Shown here: in pieces, positions 38,204-38,253 of the stretch | How the letters are laid out: every line of letters begins with the position of its first letter | Numbering within the stretch: the stretch's first letter is position 1 | Sequence record: PQ657772.1 | Direction: 5' to 3' (one strand) | Origin: Escherichia phage EC.P1 | Length of the DNA: 64,000 bases | Program-made: the position numbers and the translations under genes | The notes under the pieces: model-generated | Told to the model about the DNA's origin: nothing | Seen by the model: the letters and a program-made list of their open reading frames with translations, nothing else | The model's database searches: none

Positions 38204-38253
38204 AGCACCCTTCAGCACCCTTTAGCACCCTTTAACAACCTTTAACAACTTTT
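38204..38253. repeat. tandem 10-bp direct repeats (about 5 copies, CAGCACCCTT / TAACAACCTT)
   Basis: Seen directly; array spans the stop codon and 3' flank of 38232..38786. Confidence 0.6.

Follow-up and report, generated by a model that had tools for sequence, protein, structure and literature searches.

A variable 10-bp tandem repeat at the junction of two genes in Asteriusvirus jumbo phages

A row of 10-bp direct repeats that runs across the stop codon of a phage gene raises the question of what such an array represents: does it bind a protein, does it act on the genes that it touches, or has it grown between them with little consequence for either? We studied one such array in a stretch of 64,000 nucleotides from Escherichia phage EC.P1 (PQ657772.1), the whole of which is called the window in what follows. 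The original prediction had described five head-to-tail copies that overlap the end of one gene and continue into a 183-bp intergenic space, and it had offered two explanations, an iteron-type array of protein-binding sites or slipped-strand repeat variation that alters the C terminus of the encoded protein.

The array and its flanking genes

A 3-kb query around the array matched 33 phage records, every one from a jumbo phage of Escherichia or Salmonella in the 121Q/PBECO4 group, which places the source of the window among the Asteriusvirus (121Q/PBECO4-group) jumbo coliphages. The top match was fEgEco12 (98.6%), where the counterpart of the array is found some 36 kb in from the left end, within a co-directional block past the 20,993-bp terminal repeat. 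Similarly, the long ORFs near the array in the window are on the minus strand, overlap or abut, and form a densely packed co-directional block. Genome papers on Asteriusvirus (fEgEco12, PMC13070987; Sharanji, PMC11895373) mention only the terminal repeats of about 20 kb and not this junction. Its features, in the direction of transcription, are the following.

38232 to 38786, minus strand: upstream gene, 184 aa, hypothetical, phrog_30243 (function unknown), annotated in relatives
38203 to 38252, minus strand: array of five 10-bp units (evidence from direct reading, TRF, repeat spacings, and shuffles)
38235 to 38252, minus strand: coding part of the array, its first 18 nt, which supply the six final codons of the upstream gene (AAA GTT GTT AAA GGT TGT, encoding KVVKGC)
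38232 to 38234, minus strand: stop codon TAA of the upstream gene, inside repeat unit 2/3
38203 to 38231, minus strand: intercistronic spacer of 29 nt, composed entirely of repeat units
38041 to 38202, minus strand: downstream gene, 53 aa, hypothetical, phrog_29794 (function unknown), with its ATG at 38200 to 38202

Read directly on the plus strand, positions 38203 to 38252 hold the units CAGCACCCTT, CAGCACCCTT, TAGCACCCTT, TAACAACCTT, and TAACAACTTT; on the coding strand, the units are AAAGTTGTTA, AAGGTTGTTA, AAGGGTGCTA, AAGGGTGCTG, and AAGGGTGCTG. In the register of TTGTTAAAGG (X), the array reads X, X, Y (GTGCTAAAGG), Z (GTGCTGAAGG), and T (GTGCTGATGA). The minus strand across the junction runs ...TCA AAA GTT GTT AAA GGT TGT TAA, then AGGGTGCTAAAGGGTGCTGAAGGGTGCTG, then ATG AAA GAG.... 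The five predicted copies are thus real, although they had been placed one base off, at 38204 to 38253, and the array does span the stop codon of the gene at 38232 to 38786, as had been claimed.

TRF described the array as a repeat of period 10 with 4.1 copies, 90% matches, and a score of 61, and the repeat search returned spacings of 10, 10, and 10. A TRF score of at least 61 of any kind was reached in 17 of 200 dinucleotide-preserving shuffles of the window, and a repeat of at least four copies with a period of at least 7 and a score of at least 50 in 0 of 200. Chance does not account for the five-copy array, a conclusion for which the comparisons presented below are much stronger evidence.

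The 183-bp space itself had to be corrected. What had been taken for intergenic DNA contains the conserved 53-aa gene, whose ATG stands immediately after the final repeat unit, and the real spacer is the 29 nt of repeat units. The 53-aa ORF is intact, at 53 to 56 aa, in 18 of 18 genomes compared and is annotated in many relatives (e.g., 121Q gp361 and fEgEco12 g108); phrog_29794 matched it end to end, over residues 1 to 52 (E = 2e-34). When four neighboring proteins were searched, Pfam gave no hit above threshold, for the upstream 184-aa protein included, and PHROGs returned families of unknown function only. Scanning IMG/VR for the conserved beginning of the 53-aa gene (ATGAAAGAGTTATTTGAAGA) gave seven loci, a single one of which was relevant, namely 121Q itself, and brought no new alleles; the remaining loci were chance matches and were discarded. 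A 9-bp direct repeat, AGCACGACT, had been assigned to the same space. Both copies are present, at 38116 to 38124 and 38137 to 38145, but they lie within the 53-aa ORF, where they encode SRA...SRA, and in the relatives read there the second copy is AATCGTGCT (8/9). We take this pair for a coding coincidence peculiar to the window and not for a separate element.

The repeat motif is confined to the junction. Its 9-mer core, AAGGGTGCT, has exactly three copies in the 64-kb window, all inside the array, and in four 43-kb stretches of relatives it was found at the junction only; the repeated 10-mer is thus not common genome-wide. Allowing one mismatch gave 11 matches in the window (the three exact ones included) versus 5.9 expected, which we judged not to be an enrichment. 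One such copy of the core (AACGGTGCTGA, minus strand, 38085 to 38095) falls within the 53-aa gene at a distance of 117 bp from the array, and since one-mismatch matches are not enriched in the window, it is probably due to chance.

Allelic variation in close relatives and across the genus

We compared the junction in 12 close genomes and contigs, using deposited assemblies. Alleles of 2, 3, 4, or 5 units were found, with lengths of 24, 34, 44, and 54 nt, so that the number of repeats is not invariant among isolates.

2 units, X-T: Turkey3 and TH47; stop-to-ATG gap of -1 (TGATG overlap)
3 units, X-Y-T: fEgEco12, vB_Ec-M-J, WPEC5, WPEC3, Ecwhy_1, and three ENA metagenome contigs; gap of 9 nt
4 units, X-X-X-T: CMSTMSU; gap of 19 nt
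5 units, X-X-Y-Z-T: the window; gap of 29 nt

All differences between these alleles are exact 10-bp tandem duplications, which fall in three registers (X, TTGTTAAAGG; Y, AAAGGGTGCT; Z, AAGGGTGCTG). Divergence over the 800 nt of flanking sequence does not exceed 2.4% within the inner clade; with TH47 added, the maximum is 5.4%. By these flanks, Turkey3, with 2 units, groups with the metagenome contigs, which have 3, and at least five gains or losses of units are required even if each allele arose once. The Z-type duplication was seen in the window only. The sole 4-unit allele comes from CMSTMSU (MH494197.1), an UNVERIFIED_ORG record whose gene calls are fragmentary and which differs from the window by many 1-bp indels; the assembly seems to be of low accuracy, and comparisons that involve it call for caution. 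The 3-unit allele is the commonest, being carried by five GenBank isolates (Finland, Thailand, and two records without country) and by the three metagenome contigs, which were the only ones recovered by a metagenome scan with the upstream flank. No link of allele to host or geography was visible among the sampled isolates. The junction could also be used to type close Asteriusvirus isolates in a simple way.

What the duplications leave untouched is as clear as what they change. In all four alleles, the upstream protein ends in KVVKGC followed by the stop codon. Each unit, read in the frame of the preceding one, gives Lys-Gly-Cys-stop (AAA GGG TGC TGA, AAA GGG TGC TAA, or AAA GGT TGT TAA), and the downstream ATG is invariant, together with the adjacent Shine-Dalgarno (SD)-like AAGGGTG contributed by the last unit. 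Because the units carry both a stop codon and an SD-like site, expansion of the array is silent for both proteins. The only variable features are the stop-to-start distance (-1, 9, 19, and 29 nt) and the count of SD-like sites (1, 2, 3, and 4).

In the window, the spacer carries three AAGGGTG SD-like sites (9-mers at 38224 to 38232, 38214 to 38222, and 38204 to 38212), which pair with the 16S tail at -4.5 to -4.6 kcal/mol; across the alleles, the range for pairing with the 16S 3' tail is -4.2 to -4.6 kcal/mol. As a control, 90 annotated fEgEco12 starts had a median of -5.5 kcal/mol, and 61% of them reached -4.5 or better, compared to 12.9% of random positions. The SD-like strength of the unit is thus ordinary for this phage.

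In predicted folds, the mRNA of the junction has less structure than its own shuffles (z = +1.79), which leaves no case for a hairpin or attenuator, and the predicted energy for opening the ribosome-binding site (RBS) is about equal in the four alleles (6.5 to 7.3 kcal/mol). Searching Rfam gave a single match, to mir-221, outside the array and far below the gathering score (E = 0.59; 17.9 bits versus 46.6), which we took as chance. The promoter scan returned seven sigma-70-like sites versus 6.9 expected, none of them in the array, and the same scan found no intrinsic terminators.

The 10-bp motif is absent from the 121Q/PBECO4 clade, from ph0011, and from UE-S1, where the homologous junction has the following forms.

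One GTATGAT: 121Q, BF17, UB, slurp01, and CRJP21; gap of 21 nt
Two GTATGAT: PBECO4, G17, JP4, phAPEC6, E9.1, SP27, Sharanji, SHEFM2K, and SD-2_S15; gap of 28 nt
TAATG overlap: UE-S1; gap of -1
No evident repeat: ph0011; gap of 13 nt

The 7-bp unit of the sister clade, single in five genomes and double in nine, includes the stop codon TGA, and the C terminus KVVNV-stop is constant. A stop-carrying tandem duplication has thus arisen independently at the homologous junction. Genus-wide, stop-to-start gaps of -1, 9, 13, 19, 21, 28, and 29 nt occur; overlap or abutment of stop and start is absent in the window, with its 29-nt gap, and present in the 2-unit alleles (TGATG) and UE-S1 (TAATG).

A second boundary repeat lies at the other end of the upstream gene.

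38771 to 38792, minus strand: 9-bp tandem repeat, CAATGAGTT x2, spanning the start codon of the upstream gene (MSSMSL...), found by TRF and comparison

This 9-bp sequence is single-copy in ph0011, UE-S1, BF17, and JP4, in which the N terminus is 3 aa shorter and the CDS has 543 nt compared to 552 or 555 nt. Gene boundaries in this block seem to acquire short tandem duplications repeatedly and to tolerate them.

A census of indels between the window and four relatives, covering about 43 kb, set the array apart from other repeats. Among tandem-type indels of at least 4 bp, no other site is multi-allelic, and no other has a 10-bp unit. The others are located at 26776, 37744, 48365, 49246, 51226, and 60750; most are 9 bp long, in frame, and biallelic, and none has several length states. 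The 9-bp tandem-type indels at 26776 (e.g., TAAAATTCA), 48365, 49246 to 49259, and 51226 each show one length difference, a multiple of three.

Several further observations were made in the neighborhood. At 36357 to 37530 on the minus strand, just downstream of the array, is a tandem family of three adjoining paralogous ORFs (119, 119, and 153 aa), whose common motifs include CNL.KGD and LFQ(E/A)(S/A)LVFDK(K/N)(Y/K). Indels of 8 to 9 bp relative to the window lie near this cluster in WPEC5 and CMSTMSU (37447, 37744, and 37752). The top-scoring tandem repeat of the window, a 21-bp unit (GTATCCAGTACGCACGTTTCT x2.2, 92% matches, TRF score of 80), is found at 36157 to 36203, inside a segment (35867 to 36361) that the BLAST alignments to fEgEco12, CMSTMSU, and WPEC5 leave uncovered. 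This segment is one of two alignment breaks relative to these three genomes, the other being 45559 to 46449, and both represent replaced or diverged DNA of about 0.5 and 0.9 kb; in Turkey3, the breaks extend from 35866 to 36987 and from 45558 to 47431. Just before the second break, at about 45200 to 45231, relatives carry insertions of 16 to 106 bp.

Origin of the array and alternative explanations

We consider it probable that the array is a variable-number tandem repeat (VNTR) that arose by slipped-strand mispairing where two co-transcribed genes meet, and that it is near-neutral, leaving both proteins unaltered. Expansion would have started from the 2-unit allele (Turkey3 and TH47), whose overlap of stop and start (TGATG) is typical of translationally coupled genes. 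Three registers of exact 10-bp duplication would then have given the 3-, 4-, and 5-unit alleles, so that an overlapping, coupled stop and start became separated by as many as 29 nt of tandem stop-plus-SD units.

Why the step should be 10 bp was approached by enumerating every tandem duplication of 1 to 20 bp around the 2-unit junction and scoring as neutral those that leave both proteins and the RBS context unchanged. With a 12-nt RBS context, 10 bp was the only neutral length among those of up to 12 bp (3 of 39 products), and the observed X and Y events are two of the three neutral 10-bp products. With a 9-nt context, 10 bp gave the most neutral products among lengths of up to 14 bp (4 versus 0 to 2), and none was neutral below 8 bp. 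The first duplications may thus have survived because 10 bp is the short length that best spares both proteins, with purifying selection acting as the filter. They are not obviously favored by slippage, because microhomology at the 10-bp offset is weak in the 2-unit allele, in which 6 of 10 positions are self-similar. Once two units were present, slippage on the repeat itself would have set the 10-bp step; indeed, nearly all duplication lengths are potentially neutral in the 3-unit allele, yet 10-bp steps alone were seen. The KGC-stop is kept in two different registers, which could reflect selection for some other feature.

As for translation, the widening gap would loosen the coupling of termination and reinitiation, an effect perhaps offset by the extra unstructured SD-like standby sites. 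The array may thus tune translational coupling, and it is likely to be near-neutral or at most a weak modulator of the expression of the 53-aa protein. Under the VNTR reading, the natural series of gaps (-1, 9, 19, and 29 nt) would document how an intercistronic spacer is born from an overlapping stop/start through duplication of the junction, and purifying selection appears to pass only those duplications that regenerate a stop codon and an RBS. The alleles also provide ready material for experiments on coupling as a function of stop-to-start distance and of tandem SD-like sites.

The main rival explanation is that the number of units is itself selected and sets the output of the 53-aa protein, with tight TGATG coupling giving way to independent initiation aided by tandem SD-like standby sites. 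Several observations fit this idea: neither protein nor the proximal SD-ATG geometry differs among the alleles, which vary in gap (-1 to 29 nt) and in number of SD-like sites (1 to 4), the homologous junction was independently remodelled in the sister clade, and the units are SD-like sites within the normal range of strength for this phage. Additionally, the spacer is predicted to be unstructured, as a standby site needs to be (e.g., PMC5934652 and PMC5924895). However, predicted RBS accessibility is equal among the alleles, the commonest 3-unit allele is spread over isolates and contigs with no visible link to host or geography, and neutral slippage with purifying selection on the proteins predicts the same pattern. 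An adaptive tuning locus is therefore unlikely, although it has some claim to consideration. We are slightly more doubtful of its most novel form, in which the junction is a selected "tuning knob" whose 10-bp unit packs a stop codon, a Lys-Gly-Cys tail, and an SD-like site, so that slippage can alter the coupling and dosage of the 53-aa protein while both genes are spared. If this were true, a strictly lytic jumbo phage would possess a contingency-type expression switch, and the stop-containing 7-bp duplication of the sister clade would represent convergent evolution.

The iteron-type array of the original prediction, or any other DNA array with one protein-binding site per helical turn, fares much worse, and we regard it as very unlikely. 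The exact 10-bp period would suit such a function, as would the absence of the motif elsewhere, expected of a single dedicated site, and AAA or AAAA tracts are in phase in four of the five units. These phased tracts could give slight curvature, and intrinsic bending by an AAAG every 10 bp is a variant of the same idea. However, near-identical genomes carry anywhere from 2 to 5 units and the sister clade has no such motif, whereas iterons are typically 17 to 22 bp long and conserved in number. The array furthermore lies within and between the coding sequences of a co-directional block, and neither a sigma-70-like promoter nor a terminator lies inside it. Over the stretch from 30 to 46 kb, the GC content is 0.28 to 0.35 and the GC skew uniformly negative, with no inflection and no adjacent AT-rich region, and nothing origin-like, promoter-like, or RNA-like was found near the array. 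As for bending, a variable number of units argues against a required architecture, and most of the A runs are of three, while A-tract bending usually requires runs of at least four. One candidate iteron or origin is thereby removed.

An artefact of assembly or sequencing, by which a short repeat was collapsed or expanded, is highly improbable as well. The low quality of the CMSTMSU record and the restriction of the Z duplication to the window would be in line with it, but a 50-bp array is far below read length, three metagenome contigs and five GenBank genomes of independent origin have an identical 3-unit allele, the 2-unit allele occurs in two genomes on different branches, and the two forms of the 7-bp polymorphism of the sister clade are common to 5 and 9 independent genomes.

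Finally, a contingency or phase-variation locus that alters the upstream C terminus or fuses the two ORFs by frameshift, as a unit length that is not a multiple of three in an array spanning a stop might suggest, has next to no chance of being correct, since all four alleles encode the same KVVKGC-stop, the downstream ATG stands in frame +2, 0, +1, and +2 with respect to the upstream ORF in the 2-, 3-, 4-, and 5-unit alleles, and no X XXY YYZ slippery heptamer is present at the upstream stop. Because the frame of the ATG differs among alleles, no constant frameshift could join the ORFs, and programmed frameshifting with ORF fusion was rejected on these grounds. Both ORFs are unchanged in all alleles, and no promoter-like site overlaps the array. 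Of the slipped-strand variation originally envisaged, the unit-wise change in copy number is borne out; its effect on the C terminus is refuted for the sampled alleles.

Comparison with known systems

Like the array, the contingency loci of bacterial pathogens are highly mutable and have, at a gene end, a unit length not divisible by three. They differ in that no ORF is switched or altered here in any sampled allele. Similarly, the iterons of plasmid and phage origins are direct repeats in helical phase, whereas the units of this array are 10 bp long, contiguous, variable in number, not conserved in the genus, partly coding, and without adjacent origin architecture.

Ribosome standby sites are unstructured 5' segments that pre-load 30S subunits, and they have been described as rescuing structured RBSs (PMC5934652 and PMC5924895). 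In the literature on tandem or multiple SD phrases, "standby site" is the only such phrase that occurs among the matches listed. The spacer would resemble such sites in being predicted single-stranded and in offering extra SD-like sites to which 30S subunits could bind upstream of the true RBS. A difference from them is that predicted RBS occlusion is about equal among the alleles here.

The 2-unit allele and UE-S1 are similar to coupled overlapping gene pairs (TGATG/ATGA) in that the stop lies over the start and the SD lies inside the upstream ORF, and the neighboring genes of the block in the window also overlap or abut. In the window, however, duplications have moved the stop 29 nt upstream, and the canonical coupled arrangement is lost.

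The closest parallel is with the slipped-strand VNTRs of bacteria and phages, which share with the array the head-to-tail units, changes by whole units in very close relatives, conserved flanks, and recurrence on different lineages. Unlike the usual VNTRs, the array coincides exactly with an intercistronic junction, its units hold a stop codon and an SD-like site, and its first duplications came from a sequence with weak 10-bp self-similarity. Overall, the array is an instance of a well-known feature, the short VNTR, with one neat property, a self-terminating unit that brings its own SD-like site.
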